Shown: one piece after another, positions 11,643 to 64,000 of the stretch
Position numbering within the stretch: position 1 is the stretch's first letter
Layout of the letters: the number at the start of each line of letters is the position of its first letter
Assembly: GCA_000002445.1 (NCBI GenBank)
Contig: CP000066.1
Location: 992,001 to 1,056,000 of the forward strand
Reading direction: 5' to 3'
From: Trypanosoma brucei
Lineage: Eukaryota
Length of the DNA: 64,000 bases
Program-made: the position numbers and the translations under genes
The notes under the pieces: generated by a model
Databases searched by the model: none
Told to the model about the DNA's origin: nothing
What the model saw: the letters and a program-made list of their open reading frames with translations, nothing else

Positions 11643-13259
11643 TGGTATAGAGTTTTGCACAGATGAGGGGGAGGCGAATATCTGATACTCTTTGGGTAGA
11701 GATATGAACCCCGGTCATTTTGATTTTCGGGGGAAGTTGTGCCACTGGTGCACTCATATATGCATATGTTTATACTTATATACGTATATATAGGTAAGGT
11801 GTGTTGCGGAAAGTGAACCGAGGTAATAAAAAAAGGACAAAAGGATCATATGGCGTGCGCCGCCCCCGTAGTGGTATGTTGACGGTTGGCCACGCTCAAC
11901 AAAAGGAAAGGGGCGACGTGCATGCTCGGGAGCTGAGTGTGCGCGAGAGGCCTTGTTTCTTGTTTGGCAATAAGCAACTTTTGTGGGGCCCAAGCAGGAT
12001 GGGAGACGGATGCTCGGATGTGTTTTCCTTTTTCGTGTGCTTGTGTTTGCGTGTGTGTTTGTGTCACACGTTTAGAGCAAGGTATAAGTAATATGAGGGA
12101 GGCTGCAAACCAATGGGATGTAGAGAAAAAGAGCACGTTGTTTTTGAACCACACTGGGTTTGAGAGTATCCCCTTTTTGTATTCGTACCTGTGTACGTCC
12201 TACTGTGTTGGGAGGCAAAGAAGTGTCCATGATGGTTACCCTGACCTTGCCCGTGTTATGGATGGAATGAATATACGTGGGAAGACATGCCCATTTGGAA
12301 TGGATGTAAGCCATTGGTGGAGAAGGTGGAAAGTGTCGGGACTAGGGGGAAGGGATGGGGTGTGGAGCTATAAAAGGAGGAAGTGTGGGTGGCTCAATTG
12401 AAATGAGGTAGGAACGAAAGGAAAACAGGCTGAAGATTTGAACGTAGGGGCCGAGTTGGGCACTTCTCTGCCCGAACCCGCCGCAGAGTGCGCGTTCTGT
12501 GCTGATGAAGGCTCGAATGCGGTTTCGTTCGATATTTTTATATTCCTGACTGGATTGAGGTGTATGCGCGTGCGTTTGTGCGAGAAGATAGTATGAACGA
12601 TGCAGGGGTGGGAAATATATATATATATATATATGAGTACATACGTGAGATTAAGCGGTAACAAGCTTATATCCATTCTTACCCCGCTTTCTTTCGCATC
12701 AGCTGCTGCTGTGACGCTCTTCCCGAATCTTTTTGGTTGCATACGTCCACCTTTCGGCTGATATTGCGAATGTGGACACTCTCTCCATTTTTCTGTGTGT
12801 TCACGTTCACTTTGCATTGTTTTTTTTTTCGTTGATCCTCGCTTTATTTGTTTACCTGCAGTATCACTCCTATTTTTCTTCCTTTTGTTTCTTTTTTCAG
12901 CTGCTGCTGCCACTGCTGTGATATGTTCCCTTTTCCCTTCTTTGGTGCTGATTGGGCTATGAGCCGTTGCGGGATCGGAAACATTCTGCACGGAGAAGAC
13001 GAGTGCTGGCACAAGGGGAAGGGGAGGGAGTGCCTCCACCGAACATACCGCTTGGATGGGAGGCATATCTATGCGTGCATTTTTTTTTCTTCCTTTTTTT
13101 TTTAAATGGCGTTGCTTTTTCACCACTATTAATATCTATGAACACACACATGAATACGCACGTGCACGTGCATAATCTCGTCTACCCATTTTATGCACGC
13201 AGAACCGCTTTGGTATGTGCGGGGCGTGGCCGGATACCCAGTGGGGCGTTTGCCACGTT

Positions 13260-13345
13260 TCTCTGCTTTATTACCCTCCTCGTGCTTCGCTCTCTTTTAC
13301 GAAATTTGTCCTTATTCTTTCATTTTTCTTCTTTACACTCCGCTA
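13260..13345 (+). promoter_or_regulatory. polypyrimidine tract upstream of the small TM-protein gene
   Basis: ctctgctttattaccctcctcgtgcttcgctctcttttacg...ttcatttttcttctttacactcc. Confidence 0.4.
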
Positions 13346-13409
13346 ATCTGCGCTGGTGGTTCGTAGGGTCTGTATTCATTACTGGTGCGCGTTTGCGGCA
13401 GTTGGGCTC

Positions 13410-13898
13410 ATGACTACTAGTAACGGCTTCGAATCGCCGCGTGAGTCCGTTGCGGCAGCGGCGGCATGCAGCTCTCAGTTGCGGGAGGCTGCTGAACGGG
13501 CACGAAAGGATCCCTCCAAAGATATTGGTCTGACAACAGAGGAACTTCAGGAGCGGAAAAGGTGCGCTGCGGAGCCACACCGTTTCGTAAGTAAGTCCAC
13601 AAGTCGCCCTTTTGAGGTGAAGAGTTCCTCGCGGGCGCAGCAGATTATGACTAAGGGTGTGGTGGAGCGACAAGTCACAGCACGGCAGAAGGAGGTGCTT
13701 CGGAAGGTATCTTCACTCCGTAAACTGCAGGTGGGTCTTTTTTTTGTTGGTGTCGGGTTTGCGTACTGGGTGGGGGTGGAGTTCCTGCTGCCGCATTACG
13801 CTGCCGTACAGGAGCGGAACCGCATTTTGAGGTTGCGGTACGAGATGGCGCAGAGGAAGCGCGAGGAGCACTTACGAGTGCAGGGGTCATCGCAGTGA
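13410..13898 (+). CDS. small hypothetical protein with one predicted C-terminal transmembrane helix
   Basis: Polypyrimidine tract at 13260-13345, then the first ATG at 13410 (the ORF-track start at 13356 lies inside the pyrimidine tract). Hydrophobic segment LQVGLFFVGVGFAYWVGVEFLL. Confidence 0.4.
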   Translation: MTTSNGFESPRESVAAAAACSSQLREAAERARKDPSKDIGLTTEELQERKRCAAEPHRFVSKSTSRPFEVKSSSRAQQIMTKGVVERQVTARQKEVLRKVSSLRKLQVGLFFVGVGFAYWVGVEFLLPHYAAVQERNRILRLRYEMAQRKREEHLRVQGSSQ

Positions 13899-14159
13899 GG
13901 ATGTAATGCGAATGTCGTTGTTAGTATCGTGGGCAGCGATGCCGATTCTTCGAGAAATTACCACGGTTGTGTGGCAGTGGGTACGTGGCCACAGTTTCTG
14001 TTTTGATTTGTACAGTGGCAGCAGTTCATTCAGCGTCCCTGCAAAAGTAAGGTGTGCTCACATGCATGTCTGTATATATATATATATATAGACACATATG
14101 TGTGTATGTGTGCGTGCGAGTGTGACTAAACGCAGTGACGGGGAAGCATCGGGTAATTG

Positions 14160-14245
14160 TACTGTTTTTAATTTGTTTTCGCTGGCTGTTCTCTTTCCCT
14201 TTTGCATGTCCATTTTTCTCTTTCCCTTGTCGCCTGATATTTATG
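14160..14245 (+). promoter_or_regulatory. polypyrimidine tract upstream of GRP94 (probable trans-splicing/polyadenylation coupling signal)
   Basis: A C/T-rich run is followed by AG dinucleotides and a ~400-nt purine-rich leader before the ATG at 14672. This is typical kinetoplastid gene-boundary architecture. Confidence 0.45.
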
Positions 14246-14671
14246 AATGCGTTTATATGTGTGAAGGAATAGGCCAACATAATACGTGAAAAGATTGCAC
14301 TACTCAGTCCCAGAGGATACGACAGGGAGGGTGACAGAACGAGGGAAAGAAGGTAGAAAGAGAAAGGTTAAAGAGTAATATATTACTCGTTTTTGAAACC
14401 GCCAGAGTCTCTTTTGTAAAGGGTAAGGGTAAAAGGGAGTGGTGTTGTTGACTCCCCAAGTAGGCAGAAGACTAGGTGTTGGAGAGGCGTGCTACTTTAA
14501 ATAAAGCAGGGTTGTGGTAGAGGGATAGGGAACTTGTTAAGCGAGCTGGTTTATAACCTGCATCAAACTCCACCGAAACGAAGGGGAATCAGGGGAAGGT
14601 ATTCTGTAGTGACAAGAATAGGAATCGACTAGAACAGGTGCGCGCGTGGGTGTAAGAATCGGAAAAAAATA

Positions 14672-45592: not shown

Positions 45593-48500
45593 GTGAGTAC
45601 TAAGGACGGAAGCAGGGAAATGGCATCGGCGTGGTGCATTCAGTTCAGGGCATTCCTGTGCAAGGTGCTCCTGCAACTCAAGTCAGCATTATTTACCACT
45701 ATTTTTATGTTGCTACTTCCAACCCTCGTAATGCTTGTGCTGGTTGCAGGATACCGCTCAACCGCCATCATTCACGTGCCGGAAATGCAATATGATGAGA
45801 ATCCTCTTATAAATTCTTCAAAGATTTTCGAGAACCACTTTTGCACGAATCGTGATGCCCCGTTTTCGTTTCGTAGGCGTTTGCCTGTTCCGATGTGCTA
45901 CCCACCGTCGGAAGAGTTTGAGTGCCTTCCTTCCGTGCGTGGAGGTTCATTGTGTGTTCTCGATGCCACGTTGGCACGTGAGGCACTCGCGCAGCTGTTT
46001 GTAGCGGCTGGCCCCGTTGTTATTCCAACACTCGATGCCTATTTGGGACTGTCAGCGTTTGTGACACATGAGTTACGGCGCGAGAACCCGAGTCTGTTCG
46101 CCCGCTCCGCAAAAGAGGGCATGGGCCACTACGGTAAACTATTACTTGTGGATACGAAATCTGCCAATCATGGTGCTGCAGCGCGTTTCAGGACATTTTG
46201 TTCCAATGTAAGCGTTCTTTGCAATGAGGTGTTAGGCGATTTGCCCATTTTTGCATCTATGGCCGATGCCCGCCGGTATGCCATGGAGAACGATGGGGAG
46301 GTATGGGCTATTGCGGATATCACTGACGACCACCGGGGCGTTGGAAATTTCGTGGGGCGCGGGAATCACTTCACTATTAGCATGAATTACTCCGCAACCC
46401 CGTGGACGACGGAGGCGGCCATACCAACAACCAAAGCGATGGAGGAAGGTAACAATCTGCTGTACATCACTAGCGGGTTTCTTACTTTGCAGAACGCCAT
46501 CCAACAATTTTATGTGCGGGAACGTTTGGGGGGTAGGCTTAATTCCTCCGCGATTTTTCAGTACACTAATCTGTATGGACCTACGACTGTGGCAATGCCG
46601 TCTCCACCGCAATTCAAAAGCACATTTTATAAGTGGGGACATTACATGCCCTTGCTCGCAATTATCGCTGCTCTTTTATCCGGCATGGTGTTTGCGCGTT
46701 TAATTGTGAATGAGAAAGCTCGAATGATTCGGGGGTGTATGGAAGTAATGGGACTTCGGTGGTCCGCTATGGCATTGGGGTGGCTCATCATTGCGTTCTT
46801 GATGGACTTCATTGCTGTATGTGTGCCCGTCTTATTGGTAGGGTTCACCTTTTTCCACTACGTGAACTTGGCAGTACTGTTCGTATTATACTGGAGTTTC
46901 TTGTGCCAAATAAGAGCGTTGTGCCTCTTCTTGAGTACCTTTTTCACGAAGCCACGGTACGTGAAATTGGCTATATGTGTTGTTACAGTGTGTTGCATCA
47001 TGTCGTACTATCGCACACCGGAAAGTTACCATGCACCAAAGGTGAAGTTCATGAGTCTACTCCCTTGTGTCGGCTACCTTGCGTCATTTGACCAGCTGAT
47101 CCAGCATGCGAGCACGAGCCAAAAGTTCCATTGGAGGGATACCGTTGAAGGGTGCAACTCTGTGGCACTTCTTGTTGGTATGACATGGGTTTCCACGTTC
47201 ATTATGTTGGTACTGTGGAGTTACTTGGACCAAGTGCTTCCTACTTCATCGTGCTGTCGTAAACACCCGCTTTTTTTCCTTCAGGCGTTTCGTCGCTTTC
47301 TGTGCCACCCTCGGGACGAAAACACAGATGTTATTTCCTTTCCATGGAGGGAACTGGGAAAGGATGAGATACCGCCGTCCATGAAGTCTGTGCTGGATCA
47401 GCATCCAGAGTGCCGGGATACAGAGAATCAGACGATAGCTGCGGTACTTTATGGGCTGTGTAAGCAGAAGAAAAGGCAGAACTGGTTCTGTTGGAAGCGC
47501 GGCTCTAGTGCAGGCATCTCATTCGGAACCAGCGGTAGTGCGGCTGTAGATGACGTTTCGTGCGCGCTCGAGTTCGGAAAGGTGAATATGCTTATTGGAC
47601 CCAGCGGGTGCGGCAAGTCCACGCTCATAGGCATGGCTGTTGGTGCTGTGAGGCCCGATGCTGGTGCCGTCTACATTTGTGGCCACTCTACAGTAACTGA
47701 GCCCGAGAAGTGCCGCAGGAACATTGGATACTGCCCACAATCAGACGTTTTGTGGGAGGATCTTACTGTGGAGCAGCACCTTACCTTCTATGCTCGACTA
47801 AAGTGTGGCGGTGTTTGGGATGTGCGAGAGATTGTGAATGACATTATTGACACCCTAAATTTGGAGGCACAGTGGCTTACAAAGGCGCGGAATCTATCGA
47901 GGGGTCAGCGCCGTCGCTTATGCGTCGGTATTGCATTGATTGGTGACCCTGCCGTGCTATTTCTTGATGATCCAACGGCAGGGATGGACGTTAAGGGGCG
48001 AAGGGCGGTGTGTGAGGCGCTGAGCAAGGGGCGTGAAGGGCGTGCCGTGCTGATAGCCACCCACGAAATTGATGACGCGGAACGTATCGGGGATTACATC
48101 CACGTCATGCAGGGTTGTACTGTACGTGACTCGGGCTCGCCGCTCGTTTTAAAATCAAAGGCAAGTGCTGGGTACGTTTTAAAATGTGTCGTTAGCCCTG
48201 GCCTGACGATTGAAGAGGAGGATGACTGCATCAACCGACTTGTAGATTTCGTACGGGCTATTGCCCCTGGCGATTACGGCAGTCGTCCCGCGCGGGAGAG
48301 TCACGGTACGGTTTGTGGTGTTGGGCTCCTTGGTGTAGAGCGGCGGGGGCGTCAGGTTTCATTCCGCTTTCCGCTCGCCCTGCTCTCGTCTGAAGGCGTC
48401 TCCGTTGTTGGCGAAATAGAGGCTCGTCGCAGCGAGTTCCACCTGCAAAGTATTGGACTGAGCATCGCAACGCTACAGGATGTTTTGGATTACCTGACGG

Positions 48501-51157
48501 TTCAGCATCAACCAACGGCCGGTGCAAATGGAGACAGTGGGCTGTGTGGACTGTCGTTGGATGAAACGAATACGCCGCGCCGCGCTGGTGGCAATGGTTC
48601 CACTGTTTCCGTGGAATTTACCCCGTCTGGGACGATTCGAGACGATGAAAAGTTCTCTGCTACTTCCGGCCTCGGTCGAGCGGACACGAATGCCACACGA
48701 GACGGGGGGCTTCAGTGGACGTTCTTCTCGCATTTCGCTGCTCTTTTTGTGAAGCGGCTACATTCGGCGAAGTGGGATGCACAGCTCATGTTTTACTACA
48801 TTGTGATGCCTCTCGCATTCGCTCTTCTTTCGCTTCCCGTTGGTAAGGTTAAGCCAACTGTTCAGCCAGCGTTAACACTCGACTCTTCAATGTACCGCGC
48901 CGGCCAGAAGTCTCCCAACTCTACTCTTGTTTGGACTTACTCCAGTGTTCTTGATGACGCGTTTGGTGTTGCAAAATCTGATCTGCGTAATGTTTTCGGG
49001 CCCTATTATACGCCGGTGATGGTTGAATGTCACAGAGCGGGTTGTACCGAAGCCTTGTCTGACGTTCTTTATCAGTACTTGAATGGTAACAACTCTCATG
49101 CCGATGTTGCTATCGCACTTACCGGTGCGATGTATGGGGTTGCCACTTCTGTAACGATGCACAACCTCTCTTCACCCCATGCAGCGGCCCAGTCCCTCAA
49201 CATGCTGTACGATGTGGTGAACAATCAGCTATTTGGCGAAGGATCTTTTGTGACAGCACGTAATGAACCAATGCCAATGGGCCCGCACGAGGAGGAAATG
49301 TTTGCCGCGTTCCACCGCATTATTGCTGCTCTCTTTGTTATATTGGCCTTTATTCTCATTCCGGCTAACGTCGTTGGTCGTATTGTGAAGGAGGTGCAGT
49401 GTGGCGCGTATCATCTCCAATGTTTGGCTGGTGCTAATGCATTCTCCTTCTGGCTTAGTGCCATGCTCTTCGATTTCTTATGCTACGTTGTGGCTGAGAT
49501 TCTCGTGTTGATCGTGTTGTTTGCGTCTGGGTGCGATGAACTCGTTGGCGATGGCCATACAATTCTTGCCGCACTAGCTCTTTTTACGATGTTCGGCCTT
49601 TGCCACATTCCGTTCTCCTACGTTCTGAGCTTTCTGTTCAAATCCTCACGAAGAGCGCAAAGCACCGTTCTTGTTGGGAGCCTCGTGCTTGGAATTATGT
49701 GGATTCTGATTGAGCCTTTGGCCGTTAAAAACAACCGTGTGGCAGGCATTGTTATGGGCGTGACAAGTTTTCTGCGCGTCACACCGTGCCTTGCTTTCAG
49801 TGAGGCCCTCATGGCTATGGTGTGTACGAGGTTGGCGAATATACGAAAGCCGCTGAGGGAGCGACCAAGTCTCTTCAGCCCGCTAGGTTACAGTAGGGGT
49901 GGTTTAACCGGTGGTACCGGAACGGGTCTCCTGTACATGGTAGGTACCTTTTTCGTTTGCCTGTTGTTATTTGCCCTACTAGAGCTGCTGAGGCGTCGGG
50001 GAGCGGTGTGTTGCCTCGGACCGTGCTCGGAAGGGGATGGTGATGGGAAGCTAAACGCTGCTGCGCATCGAGGCAACCGTAAGAGAATGAAGAGACGGGG
50101 AAAAGGCACCCCCGAAGATTGGTGCGCCAACGAAGAGATGACCTCTTACCGTAATGGGGAGTTGGAGGAGGGGCGGGGTGCCGCGGCAGTGGGCCTCTCA
50201 CTTCAACACGTCACCAAGAGATACGCGGGAGTCTCCACTTTGGCCCTTCGAGACATTTCAATATCTGTGTACAAGGGGGAGACGCTGACGGTTTTGGGTC
50301 TTAATGATTCCGGTAAGTCAACAATTCTTTCTATCCTTGCAGGCAGGGTACCACCAACAACTGGGTTTGCTGGCGTCGGTGAAACCATCGTACGTCCCAA
50401 CGCCGCCCAAAGTAAGGTTGGTTACTGCCCACAAAAAGATGCGCTGATGGACAACTTAACACCATATGATCATCTTCTCTTGTTCTCTAGGCTGCGTGGT
50501 AGCACTGAGGAGCAAATCCACAGTGAGGTACCGCGGCTTCTTTGCGTGTTGGGTTTGGAGGACGTGAAGAACTGCCTCGTGCGCACACTAACTCCGGCTC
50601 AGAAGAGGCGGTTGTCGCTCGCTGTAGCCTTCGTCGGTGGGACCACGTATCTTCTGCTGGATGAGCCAACCGCCGATATGGACTTCATGTCACGAAGGCA
50701 AGTTTTCGCTGCTGTACAGGGATTAGGCAGGGCAAAGTCCGTCATTCTTGCGTCACGCCACCTGGAGGAGATGGAGGTGCTTGTGGATCGTGCCGCTTTT
50801 ATTGAGTACGGACGCTTGCGATACATTGGCACTCCTCAGGAATTGATGTCGCACTTTACCTGCGACGTCATGTACACTGTGAGGGTGGCGTTTGGCAACA
50901 CTGTCGCCCCACAGCTGGACCCGCTGGGGGAAACCGTGCGAAACCTTTGTAAGTGCTTTGACAAGGCGCAGGGTTCGCGGGGTTGTCGCATAAAGAGTGT
51001 TGTTGGTCGCACCGTTACGCTGGCGGTGACCTGCGATCTCTTGTTTGTGTGCCAGCAAAGTGCCGCGATTAGTGAAGGGGCAATCCCCGGTCTATCGCCA
51101 GTGGTACAGGTGAGCGCCACACAACCGCAGTTGGACGACATCTTGTTGGATTTTTAA
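45593..51157 (+). CDS. ABC transporter, ABCA subfamily (full transporter: TMD1-NBD1-TMD2-NBD2, with a large loop after TM1)
   Basis: Two Walker A motifs (GPSGCGKST, GLNDSGKST), two ABC signatures (LSRGQRRRL, LTPAQKRRL) and two multi-helix hydrophobic domains. 1854 aa, with the long extracytosolic loop after the first TM typical of ABCA. Confidence 0.9.
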   Translation: MSTKDGSREMASAWCIQFRAFLCKVLLQLKSALFTTIFMLLLPTLVMLVLVAGYRSTAIIHVPEMQYDENPLINSSKIFENHFCTNRDAPFSFRRRLPVPMCYPPSEEFECLPSVRGGSLCVLDATLAREALAQLFVAAGPVVIPTLDAYLGLSAFVTHELRRENPSLFARSAKEGMGHYGKLLLVDTKSANHGAAARFRTFCSNVSVLCNEVLGDLPIFASMADARRYAMENDGEVWAIADITDDHRGVGNFVGRGNHFTISMNYSATPWTTEAAIPTTKAMEEGNNLLYITSGFLTLQNAIQQFYVRERLGGRLNSSAIFQYTNLYGPTTVAMPSPPQFKSTFYKWGHYMPLLAIIAALLSGMVFARLIVNEKARMIRGCMEVMGLRWSAMALGWLIIAFLMDFIAVCVPVLLVGFTFFHYVNLAVLFVLYWSFLCQIRALCLFLSTFFTKPRYVKLAICVVTVCCIMSYYRTPESYHAPKVKFMSLLPCVGYLASFDQLIQHASTSQKFHWRDTVEGCNSVALLVGMTWVSTFIMLVLWSYLDQVLPTSSCCRKHPLFFLQAFRRFLCHPRDENTDVISFPWRELGKDEIPPSMKSVLDQHPECRDTENQTIAAVLYGLCKQKKRQNWFCWKRGSSAGISFGTSGSAAVDDVSCALEFGKVNMLIGPSGCGKSTLIGMAVGAVRPDAGAVYICGHSTVTEPEKCRRNIGYCPQSDVLWEDLTVEQHLTFYARLKCGGVWDVREIVNDIIDTLNLEAQWLTKARNLSRGQRRRLCVGIALIGDPAVLFLDDPTAGMDVKGRRAVCEALSKGREGRAVLIATHEIDDAERIGDYIHVMQGCTVRDSGSPLVLKSKASAGYVLKCVVSPGLTIEEEDDCINRLVDFVRAIAPGDYGSRPARESHGTVCGVGLLGVERRGRQVSFRFPLALLSSEGVSVVGEIEARRSEFHLQSIGLSIATLQDVLDYLTVQHQPTAGANGDSGLCGLSLDETNTPRRAGGNGSTVSVEFTPSGTIRDDEKFSATSGLGRADTNATRDGGLQWTFFSHFAALFVKRLHSAKWDAQLMFYYIVMPLAFALLSLPVGKVKPTVQPALTLDSSMYRAGQKSPNSTLVWTYSSVLDDAFGVAKSDLRNVFGPYYTPVMVECHRAGCTEALSDVLYQYLNGNNSHADVAIALTGAMYGVATSVTMHNLSSPHAAAQSLNMLYDVVNNQLFGEGSFVTARNEPMPMGPHEEEMFAAFHRIIAALFVILAFILIPANVVGRIVKEVQCGAYHLQCLAGANAFSFWLSAMLFDFLCYVVAEILVLIVLFASGCDELVGDGHTILAALALFTMFGLCHIPFSYVLSFLFKSSRRAQSTVLVGSLVLGIMWILIEPLAVKNNRVAGIVMGVTSFLRVTPCLAFSEALMAMVCTRLANIRKPLRERPSLFSPLGYSRGGLTGGTGTGLLYMVGTFFVCLLLFALLELLRRRGAVCCLGPCSEGDGDGKLNAAAHRGNRKRMKRRGKGTPEDWCANEEMTSYRNGELEEGRGAAAVGLSLQHVTKRYAGVSTLALRDISISVYKGETLTVLGLNDSGKSTILSILAGRVPPTTGFAGVGETIVRPNAAQSKVGYCPQKDALMDNLTPYDHLLLFSRLRGSTEEQIHSEVPRLLCVLGLEDVKNCLVRTLTPAQKRRLSLAVAFVGGTTYLLLDEPTADMDFMSRRQVFAAVQGLGRAKSVILASRHLEEMEVLVDRAAFIEYGRLRYIGTPQELMSHFTCDVMYTVRVAFGNTVAPQLDPLGETVRNLCKCFDKAQGSRGCRIKSVVGRTVTLAVTCDLLFVCQQSAAISEGAIPGLSPVVQVSATQPQLDDILLDF

Positions 51158-52173: not shown

Positions 52174-54048
52174 TTGCAGAAAATGAGAAACATCTGGGTT
52201 TCTGTTCCCAACGGCCACGGACACGGACAAGGCGCAGCTGTCCCGGCCACGGATAATTCGTCGATATCTGCAGATTCCTCCCCGCCGTGTACCAAACGGA
52301 TGCGGCGTTATATAGCTCCAACCAGCGTAGACCTGCAACGCTGCCGAAAGGAAGAGCCGATTCCGATGCCGATGCCAGCGCCGTCACCTTCGACTATGCT
52401 TTCAGCTAAACAGTGGCCCCAACACATGCTTCAGGGCCGCGTGCATGTGGCAGCGACCTGTGGGCAACCCACAGTGACCGTTGGCTCCAAGTTAATTCCG
52501 CCATTTTCCACAGCGACCGTAAGAGTTGGCGGGCCGACTTTCAGAGCTGGTGTTACTGTTAGTGCGCCTCTGCAGCCTGTCCCTTTTCAAGGGCATCAAA
52601 GCCAGGAGCCGCGAGGGAAACATTTGTGCGTGCGGATGTATCTCCCACAGTCGGATCCTCCTCTGCAGTCGTGGTGTGACGTGCACCCAAACCCATTAAT
52701 AGGACTTCCAGGCCGAGTGACTAACGCACCCCCGATGGAGCGTGAGCCACCCAAATACTTCTGCGACCCGTGCCAGAAAGGGTACAACACACAAGAGCAG
52801 TATGACCGTCACATGAAGACTCACATTTGGTGCTCATTTCCCGGCTGCAAGTTCACCTGCCTGCGAAGCCGCGAGTGGAAGATGGAAGCGCACATTGAGA
52901 CTCTCCACAATAGGCCCGACGCGCCTAATCTCAGTGATGTGGGGGCCTACCTGGCGCAGCGCAGGGGCCGTTTTCCCACCCAGGATTCCGTCAAGGCTAA
53001 AATGGAGGAGCTCTTCTATAAGGCTTCAAGGGGAGTTGTGCTCCCGGATGATCGTAGACGGTGGCTTCGTCAACATGGTATTTTGGTGGGGAAGCGCCCG
53101 CGAACAGGGGAGAGTTACATTGTAACTAGTGCGTCACGAAATGCAAAGAAAGTGGTTTGCTCCGAGTCAGAAGATGTAAAGGCCAATGAGGGACGTGCCG
53201 ACACATCTGATGCACCGGAAACTCAACGGGTATGTGAAGAGGGATGTAGTGGTGCCAGTGACAGTTCTCAGTGCGACGGTAACCGTCTGCGTAATAAGGA
53301 GGATCCATCCGTTTCCGTTGGTCGAGGCGGTGAATGTGAGTCCGCCGACTGCACCGGGAGTGCGATTGAGCACCGTCAGCACAAACAGAAGGATCACAGT
53401 CGGCCAAGGAGGATTATACCCTGTGGTCCTAATGGTTCCCTTTCGAACGCTCAAAAGGTTCAACTTATACGCGAGCGTTACCGCGAGGCAAAAACTGTGC
53501 CACGGTTTTACGTATGTAGTTGCTGTGGCGAGAAGGGGCAGCATTGGGTAACTGACTGCCCAAAAAGGAGTGATCAAGTGTTTGAGCGGCGTATCGTATG
53601 GGGTGAGGAGCGACGGGACCCTCCGAAACCGAAACTCCGTGATGACAATATCGTACCAGCAATGACATCATGCAGTGAAGGGAATGCTGTTGTTGATGAG
53701 ACCGCTGCCGGACCGAGTAGCGGTGATGTTGGGGTTACCAGCGATGTGGCTGAGCCTTGGGTTGAGGATGTGGGCCCTCCGCCTGAGCTGCCGGCTAGAA
53801 GGGCATGTAACGAAGAGGACAGCCGCGTGCCCAACAACGCCGCGGAGGGAAGAGGAGGTGCAACTCACAAGTGTGGCGTCAAAGAGGAGAGAAGGCAACG
53901 GGCGCAGCGCCGTGATCATCGACGTGTCCCGCCTCCGCCACCCACATTGTTTGAGCGGCTTACGGAGGATCGGAACTCGGTGGAACACGGGCTTCTTCTG
54001 CAGGCGATACGTTTTTTTGTGAAGAGTAATTTCTTTGAGCCTCGTTAA
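52174..54048 (+). CDS. zinc-finger protein with C2H2 fingers and a CCHC-like zinc knuckle; the true start may be downstream
   Basis: FCDPCQKGYNTQEQYDRHMKTH is a canonical C-x2-C-x12-H-x3-H finger, followed by a second C2H2-like finger (CSFPGC...HIETLH). CSCCGEKGQHWVTDC is a variant knuckle (C-x2-C-x5-H-x4-C). Confidence 0.6.
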   Translation: MQKMRNIWVSVPNGHGHGQGAAVPATDNSSISADSSPPCTKRMRRYIAPTSVDLQRCRKEEPIPMPMPAPSPSTMLSAKQWPQHMLQGRVHVAATCGQPTVTVGSKLIPPFSTATVRVGGPTFRAGVTVSAPLQPVPFQGHQSQEPRGKHLCVRMYLPQSDPPLQSWCDVHPNPLIGLPGRVTNAPPMEREPPKYFCDPCQKGYNTQEQYDRHMKTHIWCSFPGCKFTCLRSREWKMEAHIETLHNRPDAPNLSDVGAYLAQRRGRFPTQDSVKAKMEELFYKASRGVVLPDDRRRWLRQHGILVGKRPRTGESYIVTSASRNAKKVVCSESEDVKANEGRADTSDAPETQRVCEEGCSGASDSSQCDGNRLRNKEDPSVSVGRGGECESADCTGSAIEHRQHKQKDHSRPRRIIPCGPNGSLSNAQKVQLIRERYREAKTVPRFYVCSCCGEKGQHWVTDCPKRSDQVFERRIVWGEERRDPPKPKLRDDNIVPAMTSCSEGNAVVDETAAGPSSGDVGVTSDVAEPWVEDVGPPPELPARRACNEEDSRVPNNAAEGRGGATHKCGVKEERRQRAQRRDHRRVPPPPPTLFERLTEDRNSVEHGLLLQAIRFFVKSNFFEPR

Positions 54049-55550: not shown

Positions 55551-56081
55551 ATGTCGACTCAACTTATTTCCGGTGGTGAAGATGGGAGCCACTCCCAACT
55601 GATGGATTTGGTTCTAACGAATTGCAGCCGACCTCAAAGCCGCGCCTCCGACAATAAACAATCCACAGATGGTGTTGTACGTCTCACATCATATGTGGAT
55701 TTACCCAATCGTGACACGCTTCTGCCACCAATTGCAGAACCCAAAGGTGGTGTACCCGAAACTTCAGAGACACTTTTCCCTCGCCGTCTTGGATTTGATA
55801 TGATTGGCGTCAGCAGCGTTTCGGAGGAGATGTTACGCGACCTTTACGAAGTGTTTGATGTGCATCAAAGCGGTGGTGTTGAGCGCGGTGTTTTGCGGGA
55901 GATGATGCGCAGCGGCTTTTCACATTTTGGTGCGCCATGCAGTGATCGGGATCTCGATCGCTTTTTTGAGAATGTGACGCCGTTTCGTGTCCGCCGCCGC
56001 CGCACTCCAAAGGAAGGAGAGGTGGATGTTGTGCCTTTTAATGAATTCTGCGTGGCTTTTCTTTCGTGGCTGCGTCGGTAA
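55551..56081 (+). CDS. hypothetical protein (176 aa) with a possible EF-hand-like pair
   Basis: Polypyrimidine tract at 55260-55420, then a purine-rich leader and the ATG. LRDLYEVFDVHQSGGVERGVLREMM is weakly EF-hand-like. Low certainty. Confidence 0.4.
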   Translation: MSTQLISGGEDGSHSQLMDLVLTNCSRPQSRASDNKQSTDGVVRLTSYVDLPNRDTLLPPIAEPKGGVPETSETLFPRRLGFDMIGVSSVSEEMLRDLYEVFDVHQSGGVERGVLREMMRSGFSHFGAPCSDRDLDRFFENVTPFRVRRRRTPKEGEVDVVPFNEFCVAFLSWLRR

Positions 56082-58457
56082 TTACCATATATTTGCTGTC
56101 TAATAAAACAACGAGTGAAAAGGGACGGAAATCAGAATTGAAAAGAAAAAAGAAAAGAGAAGAGAAAATAAAAATGAAAGAAAGGGAGAAAGTAAACGAA
56201 AAAGAGGATAGTGATGTGGAGAGTCCAAACTCTGCACTCGGCTCTTTGTGTCGTTGTTTGTACGAATTCCGTATTGGAGAAAGCAAATGGTGGCAATTAG
56301 TGGCAAACAGACAAACAAACAAACGAGCAGGAAAAATAAAGAGAAGAGTGAAGGGCATTTGGGCGAGTTGAAAACATGTTGACTTCATTAGCGGAAGCTA
56401 ATGACGTGCAATTCTCAAACGCATTTTTAAATGTGCTTGACGTTTGACATACGCACAAACATATATATATATATATATATATGTTTATGTATATGTATTT
56501 TTAATATATCTTTCTAATTTCTTCTTTTCTTCAGCGCATATATGTATATAATACATGTGTCTACGTGTGTTCGGCGCGGGCTCGAATTGACCCAACGAAA
56601 GCAACGGGGAAAAATGGGGGAAAAGCAATTGAAAAAGAAAGTAGGGAGGAAACGAAGCAGACAATGAAAAGAAGGAAAACAAAATAAAGCCAACGAAAAA
56701 AGGAAGAGAGGTGAACATGAGGGGATTTCATGGTGGGGAGGGGGAAAAAAGGAATACGCGGCGTAACACCTTCTCTATGAGATCTGCAACGGCAAAAAAA
56801 AAAAAGAAATGGCGCGGAAAAAAAGAAGGGACTGTGACGGATTTGAGTCGTTCGGTTTATTCCTCTATTTTTTTTCTCTCCTCTTCTTATTTTGTTTAAA
56901 GTCTCTTTCTCTCTCTTACTCTCTCTTACTCCTCTCTTCCCCTCTTATTCTTTTTTGTTTTTTTACTTTATATATATTTTCTTGTATCGCATCTCCGCAT
57001 TTCAAAGAGGGTGGAGATGAGCATTTTTTCAGTGATAAACGGAAATAAACGAGGATTATGAACACGGATGATTACAACAAGAGAATAATAAAGAAAACAG
57101 TACGTACCAAAAAGAAAAAAAACAAAAGGCAAAGAGTTGAAAGGAAGAGGAAAGGAGCAGGGATGAGCGGGGAAGGAAAGGAAAAGAAGAAGAGAAGTGC
57201 ACTCATTTGTTGTTAAATTCTTTTAGGCACGAACTGAGCTGATGTTCGGTTTTTTTTTCTACTTTTACATGTTTGTTTCAACATTTTGTTTCGATTTTGA
57301 CTTATAAGTAATTATGTATTTGTGAAGGTTTAGTTGGGCGTGATACGTAAATAAATAAATATATATATATTCGTTTATGTATATATGTATGCGTGTACAC
57401 GTTTATGTGTGTGCACGTAACGCAACAAGTAAAGGAAAAGGGTTGCATTTCATGCGGCTCTCCGGGGGTTCCCCCATTTTCCTTCTTTCTTTCCTCTTGT
57501 ATTTTTTATTTGTTTTTTTCTCTTTTTTTTTCTTTCTCTTTATACCCTCTACTTCATTTCTTTATTTTTATTTATTTACCTATTTTATTTTTACTTTTTC
57601 CAGCCGTATTGTCCGTGCGTCCAAGTCACTTTTCGTTCGGTTCCTGCATCACTGCTTGTGTTATTTCATGAGTGTCTGTTTCTGTTTTCATCCTGTTTAG
57701 TATCATACACTAACCAAATATTTTCTTTCTCATATTTTCATGTATCTATGCATATTCCTACATATATGTCAGCTGCTGGTGGCAACGGGTGGAAGTACCG
57801 AAGACAAATTATGTATCAGAAGTTGTAGTAATGTGAAAAAAAAACAATGATTAGGTAAACACATATCAAAGGAAAAGCGTGTGTGCATGTGCTTCACAAA
57901 CCGTCGCATTTGTGATGATCGCAATTACGCATCACCTCCCCTCTCTACTCAAGCACTTCTTAAGGAGATTTTTTTTTTGTGAGGTTTTCACAAAATGCTA
58001 CTGCGAGAGTTACCGTTGTGCCGCTGCTGTTGTGCAACCTGTCGATATTGCAGCTTTAAATTATACCGTCACATGTGCAAAAATAAACCGGGCATACGCA
58101 TGGGAAGGTTATATGCACTTGGTGGAATGCAACGTGACCGAAGGCTCAAAGCTTTCGTAAATGAAACCATTATCGGTGCGTATATAATTGTATACATATA
58201 TATATATATATATACATACGTGTGTACGAGAGGTGTGTGTGTATCAGTGTGACGAGAGGAATCACTTGCTTCATAGCTATGGTAGCAAGGTGGTGTGTTT
58301 GCAACAGCTGCTACTGTTACTGCTCATGTGACCCGTGTGTTCACCTTTACCCTCTCTTTCATTACTCCTTGTTATCTTTCCTATATGAACCACGAGGTTC
58401 AAGACAAGCGCACTGCTAAACCGAAAGAACAAACAAGACATTCAACTCATATTGTAA

Positions 58458-58898
58458 TTGACGATGTCTGGCCTCACTAAGTATCTTCCTGGCGCAACCA
58501 ACCTGCTGTCCAAGTCGGGTGAAGTTTCACTGGGATCCCTCGTTGGGAAAACTGTGTTTCTTTACTTTTCTGCCTCCTGGTGCCCCCCATGCCGGGGTTT
58601 TACACCGGTCCTCGCCGAGTTCTACGAGAAGCATCATGTGGCGAAAAACTTCGAAGTCGTGCTGATTTCCTGGGATGAAAACGAGAGCGACTTCCATGAT
58701 TACTACGGCAAGATGCCATGGCTCGCTCTCCCATTTGACCAACGCTCGACAGTTTCGGAATTGGGCAAGACATTTGGCGTGGAATCCATTCCGACTCTTA
58801 TCACAATCAATGCTGATACCGGTGCCATCATTGGCACTCAGGCCCGTACCCGTGTCATTGAGGATCCCGATGGTGCCAACTTTCCGTGGCCCAACTGA
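58458..58898 (+). CDS. TXN: tryparedoxin, tandem copy 1 (thioredoxin-fold oxidoreductase of the trypanothione system); the likely translational start is the internal Met at 58464 (144 aa)
   Basis: WCPPCR active site. The sequence from MSGL... to ...FPWPN is the length and composition of trypanosomatid tryparedoxin as I remember it. Confidence 0.9.
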   Translation: MTMSGLTKYLPGATNLLSKSGEVSLGSLVGKTVFLYFSASWCPPCRGFTPVLAEFYEKHHVAKNFEVVLISWDENESDFHDYYGKMPWLALPFDQRSTVSELGKTFGVESIPTLITINADTGAIIGTQARTRVIEDPDGANFPWPN

Positions 58899-59542
58899 GA
58901 TGCCATGCTGTCTGTGAAGGAAGTGATAAGTATTGATGAAGTACGGTATGGTGTGGGGCATCTGGTGTGGAAGCACTAGTTATTCGGGAGCAAGAAAATA
59001 AGTAAGTGAAAAGTACAGAGCGAACAGGAGGGAGGGAATGAAAGTGAAAATGCTACGGAACTGAGCAGTAAGCGAAAATGGAAAATATGCTTTTGTGCCA
59101 GGGGAACATTTGTCATGCGGTCCTGCGTGTGTTTTTGTCGGATATCTCGTCATCCATCTTGCGGAGTTTTGTTTATTGCTCTTTGTTTCGGGGTTGGATT
59201 CCTGTTGTGCAGGGGTCCTGTTCCTCACACTTTTGTCATTACATATGTTCTGACCGGCACGCGCCATAATCTTCTGTGGCGTGGTTTGAATCGGTGTGGG
59301 GATATGAGCAGGAGCGGTAAGATATTGAGATATGACGAAATATTGCCTTTACAAATGCTTTCCCACCAGTTTCTTGGTATAGCTGTGTGATTACATATCC
59401 TTTGCGTGTGGGATTGAATTTCACTACGGTCAGTGGAAGCACACGCGTAACTGTTTATTCGCCATCTCTTTCCCTTCCTTCTTCACGTGACGAAGTTGAT
59501 TGATACAAGCAATAACAGGATTCAGAGAGCAGTTTTGTAACC

Positions 59543-60403
59543 ATGAGTGCAACAGAGGCGGTTGTTGAGCCGAAGGCTCCCGATGTATGCACAGAAGCGA
59601 ATGAGAGACCCCCCACGGAGAGTGGTGTGGCTGCTCCTGTGAAGCGCCTGTTCGACCTTCTTCAGGAAGACTCCAAGGAGCGTGTGGTTCGGTTGCTGAC
59701 GGCCTTTCGTGAACTCACATTGCTGGAGCAGGAGTCACTGGCGCAGGAGATGGGCGTAACACTCCCAAAGGAGGAGAAATGGCGGGCACCGTGTCCTCTG
59801 ATTGCACGGCAGCCGTCTGGTCCGTCGCTGGAAGTGCGGCGCCGGGATCCCAGTTATGTGGCATTGTGTCCGTCTGTATCTTCCGCCCTCCGTGAGTTAG
59901 GATCGAAAGAGGCTGCCCGTCGCCTCCCGGATGCGGACTTGCGGAAGTTGGTGGAGGGGGCTCTGGGAGAGGACGGCGTGTACTTGACGGTTCCCGAGTC
60001 TGATGGAGAAGGGTGTGCTGCTGCTTCCGAGCGGGTGGGAGTGGTGGATGACGGCAAGCCACCGCTGCTGGTGCGCAGCCGCTGTTATCAGGCGCTGCGG
60101 CTTGCACGCGATGAAGAGATCGAGACGGACGCTCAATACACAAGGCCAAGGGTGCTGAATGTCACTGGCATTCCATTGGAAGAAAGTGACGTGTGGGAAT
60201 GGTTTAACTTGCTGGACGTAGCGCGGAACGGTACTGTGGGTGTGGATGCTTTCCTGACGAGTGTCCGTGAGCTTGATCGCGGGTTTGGAACAAGCAGCAA
60301 GGTACAGGAAGCGTTCGAGGATGAATCACGTTCCCTCTCGGTCGATGGGCAGCTCTCTTTTGATAAGTTCGCGTATTTGGTGACACGGTTCTCTAGGTAC
60401 TAA
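59543..60403 (+). CDS. hypothetical protein (286 aa), copy 1 of the duplicated pair; weak EF-hand-like C-terminus
   Basis: A long ORF within the duplicated unit is conserved identically in copy 2. DVARNGTVGVDAF and VDGQLSFDKF are loosely EF-hand-loop-like. Confidence 0.55.
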   Translation: MSATEAVVEPKAPDVCTEANERPPTESGVAAPVKRLFDLLQEDSKERVVRLLTAFRELTLLEQESLAQEMGVTLPKEEKWRAPCPLIARQPSGPSLEVRRRDPSYVALCPSVSSALRELGSKEAARRLPDADLRKLVEGALGEDGVYLTVPESDGEGCAAASERVGVVDDGKPPLLVRSRCYQALRLARDEEIETDAQYTRPRVLNVTGIPLEESDVWEWFNLLDVARNGTVGVDAFLTSVRELDRGFGTSSKVQEAFEDESRSLSVDGQLSFDKFAYLVTRFSRY

Positions 60404-61576
60404 GTGATGCTTGTCCGCATGTGAAATGGGAACGGTTGTCCGCAGAATGGATGGGACGGGCTGACAGTTTCCATATCTTCATGCCTTCTGTTAGTCTCAC
60501 GCCCTGCTCAGCGCGCAATGTAAACTGCCGTTTTCTTTATTGTTTCCGAGTTGTCCGGAAGTAGTGAAGGCAACACGATGTATGTACGATATGGAAAGCG
60601 TGGGTAGAGTTTTTTATTTTTACACGTGTAGGAAGTGACACAGTATGGTGAGAGTTTCCAGCCGTGACATTACCGCCCTTTCTTTGGTGATGCATGTAAA
60701 GTTCCCTTTTGATTCATGTAGTTTAGGTGTGTGGGGCTGTGCAACGAGAAGTTATCTAACACGTAGTGTTGTAGCGTATTGTGGGTTTGCACACTGTTGG
60801 AAGTACTGTAAAATCTTTGTTTGTTTCCAATATCCTGTTTGTTAGTAATATTATTCTACTCTGAGCACTTCTTCGCAACTATTACCATTCAATTGATATG
60901 GCAGTCGTGGTGTCACAGCTTTATCTCGGTGTTTGTTCGTTTTTTTCATTTTTCCTTCGATTTCGCATACTGTATCTGTAATTCGGTTAAATGATTTTTT
61001 TGTAGATATGGTGTTTTTCTGCTGTCGGTAGCGATCGGGGACTGGTGGTTACACCGTTGATGGACTGTTCGTGGCATTATGTTGTCGATAACATAAAACT
61101 TCAGCAATAGCACCTGGCACCGCCACGACGTGCGGTGCAATCACCTTACACGCTTAGCTGGCCCAACTGGTCGCCGTAATTTTGGTGTGTGTGGATTTTT
61201 TAAATTTTCTTTTCTCGATATAGTCCTCTCTCAAATGCCACAAAGGTGCTAACCACATGGTAGTGGTGGCTCCCTACTTCTCTTATGTTCATGCGAGTGG
61301 ATGGTGTGCTGTTACAAGGGCTTGGACTGCGTGTGTACGTGTGTACGAGAGGTGTGTGTGTATCAGTGTGACGAGAGGAATCACTTGCTTCATAGCTATG
61401 GTAGCAAGGTGGTGTGTTTGCAACAGCTGCTACTGTTACTGCTCATGTGACCCGTGTGTTCACCTTTACCCTCTCTTTCATTACTCCTTGTTATCTTTCC
61501 TATATGAACCACGAGGTTCAAGACAAGCGCACTGCTAAACCGAAAGAACAAACAAGACATTCAACTCATATTGTAA

Positions 61577-62017
61577 TTGACGATGTCTGGCCTCGCTAAG
61601 TATCTTCCTGGCGCAACCAACCTGCTGTCCAAGTCGGGTGAAGTTTCACTGGGATCCCTCGTTGGGAAAACTGTGTTTCTTTACTTTTCTGCCTCCTGGT
61701 GCCCCCCATGCCGGGGTTTTACACCGGTCCTCGCCGAGTTCTACGAGAAGCATCATGTGGCGAAAAACTTCGAAGTCGTGCTGATTTCCTGGGATGAAAA
61801 CGAGAGCGACTTCCATGATTACTACGGCAAGATGCCATGGCTCGCTCTCCCATTTGACCAACGCTCGACAGTTTCGGAATTGGGCAAGACATTTGGCGTG
61901 GAATCCATTCCGACTCTTATCACAATCAATGCTGATACCGGTGCCATCATTGGCACTCAGGCCCGTACCCGTGTCATTGAGGATCCCGATGGTGCCAACT
62001 TTCCGTGGCCCAACTGA
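61577..62017 (+). CDS. TXN: tryparedoxin, tandem copy 2; differs from copy 1 by Thr6Ala (counted from MSGL)
   Basis: Identical to copy 1 except act->gct at 61595. WCPPCR motif. Confidence 0.9.
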   Translation: MTMSGLAKYLPGATNLLSKSGEVSLGSLVGKTVFLYFSASWCPPCRGFTPVLAEFYEKHHVAKNFEVVLISWDENESDFHDYYGKMPWLALPFDQRSTVSELGKTFGVESIPTLITINADTGAIIGTQARTRVIEDPDGANFPWPN

Positions 62018-62661
62018 GATGCCATGCTGTCTGTGAAGGAAGTGATAAGTATTGATGAAGTACGGTATGGTGTGGGGCATCTGGTGTGGAAGCACTAGTT
62101 ATTCGGGAGCAAGAAAATAAGTAAGTGAAAAGTACAGAGCGAACAGGAGGGAGGGAATGAAAGTGAAAATGCTACGGAACTGAGCAGTAAGCGAAAATGG
62201 AAAATATGCTTTTGTGCCAGGGGAACATTTGTCATGCGGTCCTGCGTGTGTTTTTGTCGGATATCTCGTCATCCATCTTGCGGAGTTTTGTTTATTGCTC
62301 TTTGTTTCGGGGTTGGATTCCTGTTGTGCAGGGGTCCTGTTCCTCACACTTTTGTCATTACATATGTTCTGACCGGCACGCGCCATAATCTTCTGTGGCG
62401 TGGTTTGAATCGGTGTGGGGATATGAGCAGGAGCGGTAAGATATTGAGATATGACGAAATATTGCCTTTACAAATGCTTTCCCACCAGTTTCTTGGTATA
62501 GCTGTGTGATTACATATCCTTTGCGTGTGGGATTGAATTTCACTACGGTCAGTGGAAGCACACGCGTAACTGTTTATTCGCCATCTCTTTCCCTTCCTTC
62601 TTCACGTGACGAAGTTGATTGATACAAGCAATAACAGGATTCAGAGAGCAGTTTTGTAACC

Positions 62662-63522
62662 ATGAGTGCAACAGAGGCGGTTGTTGAGCCGAAGGCTCCC
62701 GATGTATGCACAGAAGCGAATGAGAGACCCCCCACGGAGAGTGGTGTGGCTGCTCCTGTGAAGCGCCTGTTCGACCTTCTTCAGGAAGACTCCAAGGAGC
62801 GTGTGGTTCGGTTGCTGACGGCCTTTCGTGAACTCACATTGCTGGAGCAGGAGTCACTGGCGCAGGAGATGGGCGTAACACTCCCAAAGGAGGAGAAATG
62901 GCGGGCACCGTGTCCTCTGATTGCACGGCAGCCGTCTGGTCCGTCGCTGGAAGTGCGGCGCCGGGATCCCAGTTATGTGGCATTGTGTCCGTCTGTATCT
63001 TCCGCCCTCCGTGAGTTAGGATCGAAAGAGGCTGCCCGTCGCCTCCCGGATGCGGACTTGCGGAAGTTGGTGGAGGGGGCTCTGGGAGAGGACGGCGTGT
63101 ACTTGACGGTTCCCGAGTCTGATGGAGAAGGGTGTGCTGCTGCTTCCGAGCGGGTGGGAGTGGTGGATGACGGCAAGCCACCGCTGCTGGTGCGCAGCCG
63201 CTGTTATCAGGCGCTGCGGCTTGCACGCGATGAAGAGATCGAGACGGACGCTCAATACACAAGGCCAAGGGTGCTGAATGTCACTGGCATTCCATTGGAA
63301 GAAAGTGACGTGTGGGAATGGTTTAACTTGCTGGACGTAGCGCGGAACGGTACTGTGGGTGTGGATGCTTTCCTGACGAGTGTCCGTGAGCTTGATCGCG
63401 GGTTTGGAACAAGCAGCAAGGTACAGGAAGCGTTCGAGGATGAATCACGTTCCCTCTCGGTCGATGGGCAGCTCTCTTTTGATAAGTTCGCGTATTTGGT
63501 GACACGGTTCTCTAGGTACTAA
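62662..63522 (+). CDS. hypothetical protein (286 aa), copy 2; protein identical to 59543..60403
   Basis: Same translation as copy 1, with an exact 3119-nt offset. Confidence 0.55.
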   Translation: MSATEAVVEPKAPDVCTEANERPPTESGVAAPVKRLFDLLQEDSKERVVRLLTAFRELTLLEQESLAQEMGVTLPKEEKWRAPCPLIARQPSGPSLEVRRRDPSYVALCPSVSSALRELGSKEAARRLPDADLRKLVEGALGEDGVYLTVPESDGEGCAAASERVGVVDDGKPPLLVRSRCYQALRLARDEEIETDAQYTRPRVLNVTGIPLEESDVWEWFNLLDVARNGTVGVDAFLTSVRELDRGFGTSSKVQEAFEDESRSLSVDGQLSFDKFAYLVTRFSRY

Positions 63523-64000
63523 GTGATGCTTGTCCGCATGTGAAATGGGAACGGTTGTCCGCAGAATGGATGGGACGGGCTGACAGTTTCCATATCTTCA
63601 TGCCTTCTGTTAGTCTCACGCCCTGCTCAGCGCGCAATGTAAACTGCCGTTTTCTTTATTGTTTCCGAGTTGTCCGGAAGTAGTGAAGGCAACACGATGT
63701 ATGTACGATATGGAAAGCGTGGGTAGAGTTTTTTATTTTTACACGTGTAGGAAGTGACACAGTATGGTGAGAGTTTCCAGCCGTGACATTACCGCCCTTT
63801 TTTTGGTGATGTATGCAAAATTGCAAGGATGTGTTTTGCGATTTTTGAAGTGTTGCCGTTGATTTTATGTTAGTTCTTTTGCATGTTGTTGTTGTGTTTT
63901 TTTTATTTTAATTTCCTCTTCCTTTTTTGTTGTTGAATCTAATTGTAAAATATATATATATATATATGAATTTTTGTGGAGATCCAAGTGTGTCTCTGTA

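Follow-up and report, generated by a model that had tools for sequence, protein, structure and literature searches.

The tryparedoxin locus on chromosome 3 of Trypanosoma brucei very probably consists of a two-unit duplication of a segment carrying the tryparedoxin gene TXN1 and the paraflagellar rod component gene PFC6, which originated in the T. brucei lineage and whose copies have been homogenized, with a plausible role in gene dosage. We analyzed a 64,000-nucleotide (nt) stretch of the forward strand of contig CP000066.1 (positions 992,001 to 1,056,000, GenBank assembly GCA_000002445.1), hereafter the window, and coordinates refer to this window unless another record is named. The duplication is real and ordinary for trypanosome genomes, and is already annotated and named (AAZ10408–AAZ10412; PMC2935891). 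Our analysis adds the exact boundaries of the repeat, an explanation of its identity by conversion rather than youth, the non-canonical EF-hand loops of PFC6, a possible copy-number difference in T. b. equiperdum, and the odd synteny of TXN2.

A base-by-base self-comparison of the window revealed two head-to-tail units, U1 (58217–60700) and U2 (61336–63819), each 2484 nt long and offset by 3119 nt. The same pair was recovered by a repeat search of the window. At this offset, identity drops immediately to the random level (~25%) outside the two units, which differ from each other at four positions in all (58476, 60682, 60693, and 60697). Each unit contains one 144-amino acid (aa) tryparedoxin open reading frame (ORF) and one 286-aa ORF that encodes PFC6, both on the + strand. 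The unit starts 247 nt 5′ of the tryparedoxin ATG and ends 297 nt 3′ of the PFC6 stop codon, where the copies part completely. The locus is built from the following elements, listed with the flanks and the upstream neighbor PFC7 at the end:

58217–60700, + strand: repeat unit 1 (U1), 2484 nt; upstream region with polypyrimidine tract and AG, TXN1b, intergenic region, PFC6 copy 1, and 3′ flank
58464–58898, + strand: coding sequence of tryparedoxin TXN1b, 144 aa, Thr5 (Tb927.3.3760 / AAZ10409.1 / XP_843968.1)
59543–60403, + strand: PFC6 copy 1, 286 aa (Tb927.3.3770 / AAZ10410.1)
60674–60700, + strand: decayed 3′ edge of the repeat, with three of the four inter-copy mismatches (60682, 60693, 60697)
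60701–61335, + strand: single-copy spacer (S), 635 nt, between the units
61336–63819, + strand: repeat unit 2 (U2), 2484 nt
61583–62017, + strand: coding sequence of tryparedoxin TXN1a, 144 aa, Ala5 (Tb927.3.3780 / AAZ10411.1 / UniProt TYPX_TRYBB)
62662–63522, + strand: PFC6 copy 2, 286 aa (AAZ10412.1), identical to copy 1 in protein and DNA
63820–64000, + strand: unique right flank, polypyrimidine tract and (TA)n, leading to the next gene (1024 aa)
56082–58216, + strand: left flank, 2.1 kb of low-complexity intergenic sequence between PFC7 and U1
55551–56081, + strand: PFC7, 176 aa (Tb927.3.3750 / AAZ10408.1), an EF-hand-motif component of the paraflagellar rod

The interior of the two units is 99.96% identical, non-coding DNA included. 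Specifically, each unit has ~1.19 kb of non-coding sequence next to a coding part of 1.30 kb, and this non-coding sequence carries no difference between U1 and U2 except the three at the 3′ edge. The segment 5′ of tryparedoxin exposes a long polypyrimidine tract followed by AG dinucleotides (58331–58405), and neither this 5′ region nor the entire 3′ intergenic region of tryparedoxin differs between the copies. An earlier note on this DNA had described a head-to-tail, two-gene duplication with tryparedoxin at an offset of 3119, identity extending through the non-coding flanks, and a unique end of ~640 bp in the first unit, all of which are confirmed here, the last as the 635-nt single-copy spacer. 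The note described the units as essentially identical over both coding regions, of which the 286-aa ORF is fully identical and tryparedoxin is not, and it started the tryparedoxin coding sequence at an upstream TTG, in place of which we assign the ATG at 58464 and 61583. It also allowed for an array continuing past the window. However, the 181 nt at 63820–64000 are colinear with the single-copy flank of the next gene in T. b. equiperdum (CM010674.1, 11159–11340 of the retrieved piece) and T. b. gambiense (FN554966.1), and window base 64000 aligns to the first base (ATG) of that gene. The right flank is thus unique sequence preceding the next gene, and the array ends at two units in this assembly.

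Within the trypanothione system, tryparedoxin takes the central position in passing on reducing equivalents, and it is a candidate drug target. The downstream copy matches the chain of PDB 1O73 at 144 of 144 residues and the upstream copy at 143 of 144, the sole difference being Thr for Ala at residue 5. This substitution stems from the mismatch at 58476, which is nonsynonymous and encodes Thr5 in the first copy and Ala5 in the second. Both copies preserve the WCPPC active site (SASWCPPCRGF), and TXN1 matches the Pfam family Thioredoxin_8 with E = 9e-26 and 90.5 bits (cut-off 27). A hydrophobic C-terminal tail is the mark of the TXN2/TXN3 class (PMC2935891). Such a tail is present in TXN2 of T. 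congolense, T. theileri, and T. b. gambiense (194–198 aa), whereas the TXN1 proteins stop at ...GANFPWPN and lack it, which places them in the cytosolic TXN1 class. From the identity with the characterized enzyme (TYPX_TRYBB, 1O73), it follows that TXN1 would be expected to carry out trypanothione-dependent reduction of peroxidases. An exact-sequence look-up places the proteins of the locus in consecutive GenBank records, namely AAZ10408 (PFC7), AAZ10409 (Thr5 tryparedoxin), AAZ10410 (PFC6), AAZ10411 (Ala5 tryparedoxin), and AAZ10412 (PFC6). As Thr5 was matched in TREU927 alone, the window most probably derives from chromosome 3 of T. b. brucei TREU927. Castro et al. (2010) assigned TbTXN1a to Tb927.3.3780 and TbTXN1b to Tb927.3.3760, and reported two genes in T. 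b. gambiense too (PMC2935891).

The locus is best explained by a sequence of events in which a 2.48-kb segment with two unrelated genes would have been duplicated before the split of strain TREU927 from T. b. gambiense. The copies would then have been kept near-identical, in coding and non-coding sequence alike, by gene conversion and/or unequal crossing-over, with the homogenized tract ending just short of the original 3′ boundary. The second copy, with its identical trans-splicing signals and identical TXN 3′ untranslated region (UTR), would roughly double the output of tryparedoxin mRNA. Kinetoplastid genes have no individual promoters, so that copy number is a main lever on output, and T. 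brucei tandem arrays have been associated with dosage and concerted evolution (PMC1855330), a published view with which the general dosage rationale of the earlier note agrees. Given identical 5′ processing signals and 3′ UTRs, both TXN copies should contribute equally to tryparedoxin mRNA, and by analogy with other arrays a dosage benefit of the second unit is plausible. The + strand holds 18 of the 20 window ORFs of at least 250 aa, which fits the expectation for one kinetoplastid polycistronic unit. PFC6 would most simply be a passenger, co-duplicated through its adjacency to TXN1, an adjacency kept as far as Leishmania. Its two mRNAs would differ in their distal 3′ UTR, with the spacer in one and the right flank in the other, and the spacer is probably the distal 3′ UTR plus intergenic region of PFC6 copy 1.

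Those PFC6 ends, or the Thr5 and Ala5 tryparedoxins, might also mean that the two units are functionally differentiated and that selection keeps both, which we consider improbable. Trypanosome polyadenylation sites are set by the downstream splice signal. The complete divergence of the sequence after PFC6 suggests that the polyadenylation sites of its two mRNAs must differ, and the nonsynonymous difference at TXN codon 5 also speaks for differentiation. However, the Thr5 variant was found by exact-sequence look-up in T. b. brucei TREU927 only, while the Ala5 protein exactly matches records from T. brucei, T. b. gambiense, and T. b. equiperdum, and the two T. b. gambiense copies and the single T. 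b. equiperdum copy all encode Ala5. Private to TREU927 and distant from WCPPC, Thr5 looks like a young neutral variant. Moreover, the sequences surrounding TXN on both sides are the same in the two units.

Homogenization of an older duplication is indicated by an alignment of all copies. At the substitutions 58324, 58379, 59114, 59342, 59435, and 60254, the two TREU927 copies agree on one base, and every T. b. gambiense copy as well as T. b. equiperdum has the alternative. The same distribution is seen for a 14-nt indel at 58423 (and 61542), where neither TREU927 copy has the sequence AAAGAACAAATCCA, which the single T. b. equiperdum unit and each of the T. b. gambiense copies contain. Variants common to both copies within a genome that differ between genomes indicate concerted evolution. 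Interior differences between copies are limited to one per genome, at 58476 in TREU927 and 59017 in T. b. gambiense, and because identity is as complete in non-coding as in coding sequence, purifying selection on the proteins is not its cause. By contrast with this interior, three of the four TREU927 mismatches fall within the last 19 nt of the repeat, a clustering with a chance of ~2e-6 under a uniform spread. Position 60697 distinguishes the copies in TREU927 and T. b. gambiense alike, and positions 60682 and 60693 vary among strains. Such a 3′-edge pattern is expected if conversion tracts with variable ends acted on an older duplication. The U1–spacer–U2 layout is common to TREU927 and T. 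b. gambiense, and the duplication is therefore older than their divergence. As a separate observation, AAAGAACAAATCCA lies in the presumed TXN 5′ UTR and resembles slippage in an A-rich short repeat.

A comparison of copy number with related species, which the earlier note had proposed, showed TXN1 and PFC6 as single genes in each of four species (T. cruzi, T. theileri, T. melophagium, and T. vivax); the contig from T. congolense breaks off within PFC6. As far as sampled, the duplication thus appears confined to the T. brucei (Trypanozoon) lineage, in agreement with the gene lists in PMC2935891. These single copies outside the T. brucei group, together with an interior that is near-identical even in non-coding DNA, would also suit a very recent duplication that had no time to diverge and requires no gene conversion. 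We regard this as quite unlikely: T. b. gambiense has the same architecture with matching junctions (99.2% ungapped across both), and the seven genome-specific differences, including the 14-nt indel, are found in both copies and would require parallel identical mutations without homogenization. In addition, the mismatches cluster at the 3′ edge and include one that tells the copies apart across genomes. The earlier note had proposed a "very recent duplication or ongoing gene conversion"; the genome-specific shared variants support its second part, whereas the architecture shared with T. b. gambiense speaks against the first.

The join between the units is visible outside the TREU927 assembly. 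In the chromosome of T. b. gambiense DAL972, a single ungapped stretch at 99.2% identity leads from the U1 end across the complete spacer into the beginning of U2. The short-read (Logan) contig L005 runs from U1 through the whole spacer to 30 nt into U2, contig L006 ends 15 nt short of U2, and contigs L004 and L007 span the U1-to-spacer junction.

A few observations weigh against a simple, two-unit homogenized duplication. First, the chromosome-level record CM010674.1 of T. b. equiperdum contains a single unit in the order left flank–unit–right flank, with no spacer (8661–11340 of the retrieved piece), which reflects either collapse of the repeat or a true one-unit allele left by recombination between copies. 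Second, the T. b. gambiense assembly is interrupted within the locus by a 100-N gap and carries left-flank sequence redundantly there, which makes it an imperfect witness for the total number of copies. Third, a Sanger-era repeat consensus could overstate the identity of U1 and U2. Lastly, a spacer unrelated to either flank is not predicted by simple tandem duplication, and Smith-Waterman scores of the spacer versus the left and right flanks are within those of shuffled controls.

The DAL972 chromosome (FN554966.1) has further irregularities at this locus. The sequence corresponding to window 56573–58324 is missing upstream of the first unit (8786-8769 junction). The 100-N gap (12488–12587) lies after the second TXN gene and is followed by a re-start at window 56217, and the last ~200 nt before the gap are rich in mismatches and indels. 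These features point to a mis-join or haplotype mixture at the locus.

That the second copy is an assembly artefact, a single-copy locus falsely doubled, is the least probable explanation and can be largely set aside, since the one-unit T. b. equiperdum record and the troubled T. b. gambiense assembly, with its gap and re-started left flank, are outweighed by a spacer joined to the unit end and to the unit start in both T. b. gambiense and contig L005, by the recurrence of the unit-end/spacer junction in three further short-read contigs, by a true difference between the copies at 58476 with both protein variants deposited, and by published work that counts TXN1a and TXN1b separately in T. b. 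brucei as well as in T. b. gambiense (PMC2935891).

The spacer has no other copy in the 64-kb window by BLAST, and no BLAST match to the T. b. gambiense TXN2 locus, which the flanks matched by (TA)n only. It did not align with the intergenic regions of T. congolense, but neither did the upstream arm of the unit itself, which served as positive control. A search of Rfam found no family in the spacer, only low-complexity matches to microRNA models far below threshold. Unequal exchange between (TA)n tracts (58186–58216 and ~63945–63970) was considered as the origin of the array and rejected, as it predicts a spacer derived from the right flank, which this spacer is not. At the junctions themselves, the octamer CGTGTGTA is tandemly doubled between the spacer and U2 (61330–61345) and single between the left flank and U1 (58213–58226). 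This doubling hints at microhomology or slippage at the spacer-unit join.

The gene order around the locus differs among trypanosomes in the position of TXN2. T. cruzi, T. theileri, and T. melophagium share the order PSP1-TXN2-TXN1-PFC6, and T. vivax and T. congolense the order ZnF-PFC7-TXN2-TXN1-PFC6, where ZnF is a zinc-finger gene. In the T. brucei group, the order is ZnF-PFC7-[no TXN2]-[TXN1-PFC6]x2, and TXN2 lies at a distance of ~370 kb, in the order PSP1-TXN2-XPB. The left edge of the repeat coincides with this T. brucei-specific synteny junction. A TXN2 pseudogene in the 2.1-kb left flank was considered and rejected, as tblastn with TXN2 of T. congolense and T. theileri matched the two TXN1 genes only. 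We tentatively raise the possibility, on balance doubtful, that the unit marks the scar of a T. brucei-specific rearrangement that parted TXN1 from TXN2, with a copy number that may be polymorphic (one in T. b. equiperdum, two in TREU927 and T. b. gambiense). On the accepted species tree, no single rearrangement can yield these gene orders, which suggests that TXN2 was formerly at both junctions and then underwent reciprocal loss. If so, one repair event could have left behind both the 635-nt spacer and the duplication as by-products. Separately, T. vivax has ~4 kb with three called ORFs (384, 164, and 154 aa) between TXN1 and PFC6 (10436–14613 of the retrieved piece), compared to ~0.6–1.2 kb in the other species examined.

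The 286-aa ORF, uncharacterized according to the earlier note, is PFC6 (Tb927.3.3770), a component of the paraflagellar rod. Its product is an exact match to TREU927 AAZ10410.1/AAZ10412.1, its position between Tb927.3.3760 and Tb927.3.3780 fits, and a T. equiperdum record in its 90%-identity cluster carries the name "paraflagellar rod component". PFC6 and PFC7 (Tb927.3.3750) were identified as paraflagellar rod components by comparative flagellar proteomics and were depleted from flagella after RNA interference of PFR2; an EF-hand motif was reported for both (PMC2645819). In yeast two-hybrid assays, self-interaction of PFC6 was seen in four of four cases, along with weak interactions with PFR5 and PFR6 (PMC2766642). 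Orthologues have been given for T. cruzi and Leishmania, and LmjF29.1170 lies directly 3′ of TXN1 LmjF29.1160 (PMC2813431). We found full-length orthologues in T. vivax, T. theileri, T. melophagium, T. rangeli, and T. cruzi, and one truncated by the contig end in T. congolense. Their identity to PFC6 is 42–62%, and every one is located downstream of TXN1. A paralogous relationship between PFC6 and PFC7, as remnants of a larger ancient repeat, was rejected (BLASTP E = 27).

The AlphaFold model of PFC6 has low confidence overall (mean predicted local distance difference test, pLDDT, of 53) and is interpretable in the C-terminal domain only. There, residues ~214–283 are predicted to form two consecutive helix-loop-helix moieties with a local pLDDT of 67–90. 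The first consists of helix 214–224, a short β-strand (res. 231–233), and helix 234–244, and the second of helix 252–265, a short β-strand (res. 270–272), and helix 273–283. Among the 50 matches listed by Foldseek against the PDB, every local alignment of ~70–80 residues is to an EF-hand protein (calmodulin, centrin, troponin C, sorcin), with a root-mean-square deviation of ~3–4 Å, and no match reaches E ≤ 1e-3. The profile of the PFC6 family matches the calmodulin C-lobe with E = 4e-6. The Pfam model EF-hand_7 scores 19.9 bits in PFC6, below its gathering threshold of 30, and a sub-threshold EF-hand match is present in five of eight PFC6 orthologues. No known domain was found in the N-terminal ~210 residues.

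In a canonical 12-residue EF-hand loop, positions 1, 3, and 5 are occupied by acidic ligands and position 12 by Glu, and PFC6 departs from this arrangement in both loops. Loop 1 (D-V-A-R-N-G-T-V-G-V-D-A) has Ala at position 3 and Ala at position 12, which is Pro in other species. Loop 2 (S-L-S-V-D-G-Q-L-S-F-D-K) has Ser or Ala at position 1 and Lys or Ala at position 12. Seven of the aligned orthologues span the loops, and in these neither loop has Glu at position 12, nor does loop 2 have Asp at position 1. These non-canonical loops make Ca2+ binding by PFC6 doubtful. From sequence and model, we infer that the PFC6 C-terminus is a degenerate EF-hand pair, more likely to mediate protein-protein contact than canonical Ca2+ sensing.

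Upstream of the repeat, the left flank is unusually long for an intergenic region and contains purine-rich, pyrimidine-rich, (TA)n, and (TG)n runs, with a G+C fraction down to 0.30 and spurious, sub-threshold Rfam microRNA matches. The same transcription unit includes, further upstream, an 1854-aa ABC transporter (45593–51157; ABC2_membrane_3/ABC_tran in the homologous locus) and a 624-aa protein (52174–54048) with C2H2 (jaz-type) and CCHC zinc-finger motifs. No ABC transporter is called within ~4.4 kb upstream of the zinc-finger gene in T. vivax.

For experiments, the architecture of the locus means that knock-out, tagging, or quantification of TXN1 must reckon with two near-identical, mutually recombining genes, and likewise with two PFC6 genes, which is already reflected in annotation and literature. 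The genes analyzed here are the same locus as TbTXN1a/TbTXN1b and PFC6 on T. brucei chromosome 3 in GenBank/TriTrypDB, with proteins that exactly match AAZ10409–AAZ10412. Previous studies (PMC2935891, PMC2645819) name these genes without repeat boundaries, the unique spacer, or the conversion pattern.

Compared to EF-hand pair proteins such as the calmodulin C-lobe and centrin, the C-terminal ~70 residues of PFC6 are alike in the topology of two helix-loop-helix moieties, in profile, and in fold. PFC6 differs from them in its sub-threshold Pfam score, in loops without the position-12 Glu, and in the ~210 N-terminal residues without a known domain.

The duplication as a whole resembles the concerted tandem arrays of T. 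brucei, of which the alternating α/β-tubulin array is an example. As in the arrays described by Jackson (2007), the units are arranged head-to-tail within a polycistronic unit, non-coding sequence is as conserved as coding sequence, and paralogues within a genome are closer than orthologues between genomes; a role in dosage was proposed for those arrays in the absence of individual promoters (PMC1855330). The tryparedoxin array, which goes unmentioned in the main text of that study, differs in having two units only, two functionally unrelated genes per unit, and a unique spacer, and is thus not perfectly periodic.

Leishmania likewise carries tandem tryparedoxins directly upstream of PFC6, as LmjF29.1150 (TXN2), LmjF29.1160 (TXN1), and LmjF29.1170 (PFC6), and as TXN1a/TXN1b in L. 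braziliensis (PMC2935891, PMC2813431). By gene numbering, however, TXN alone is duplicated there, not PFC6, and TXN1 and TXN2 have diverged into distinct enzymes, in contrast to the homogenized copies of T. brucei.

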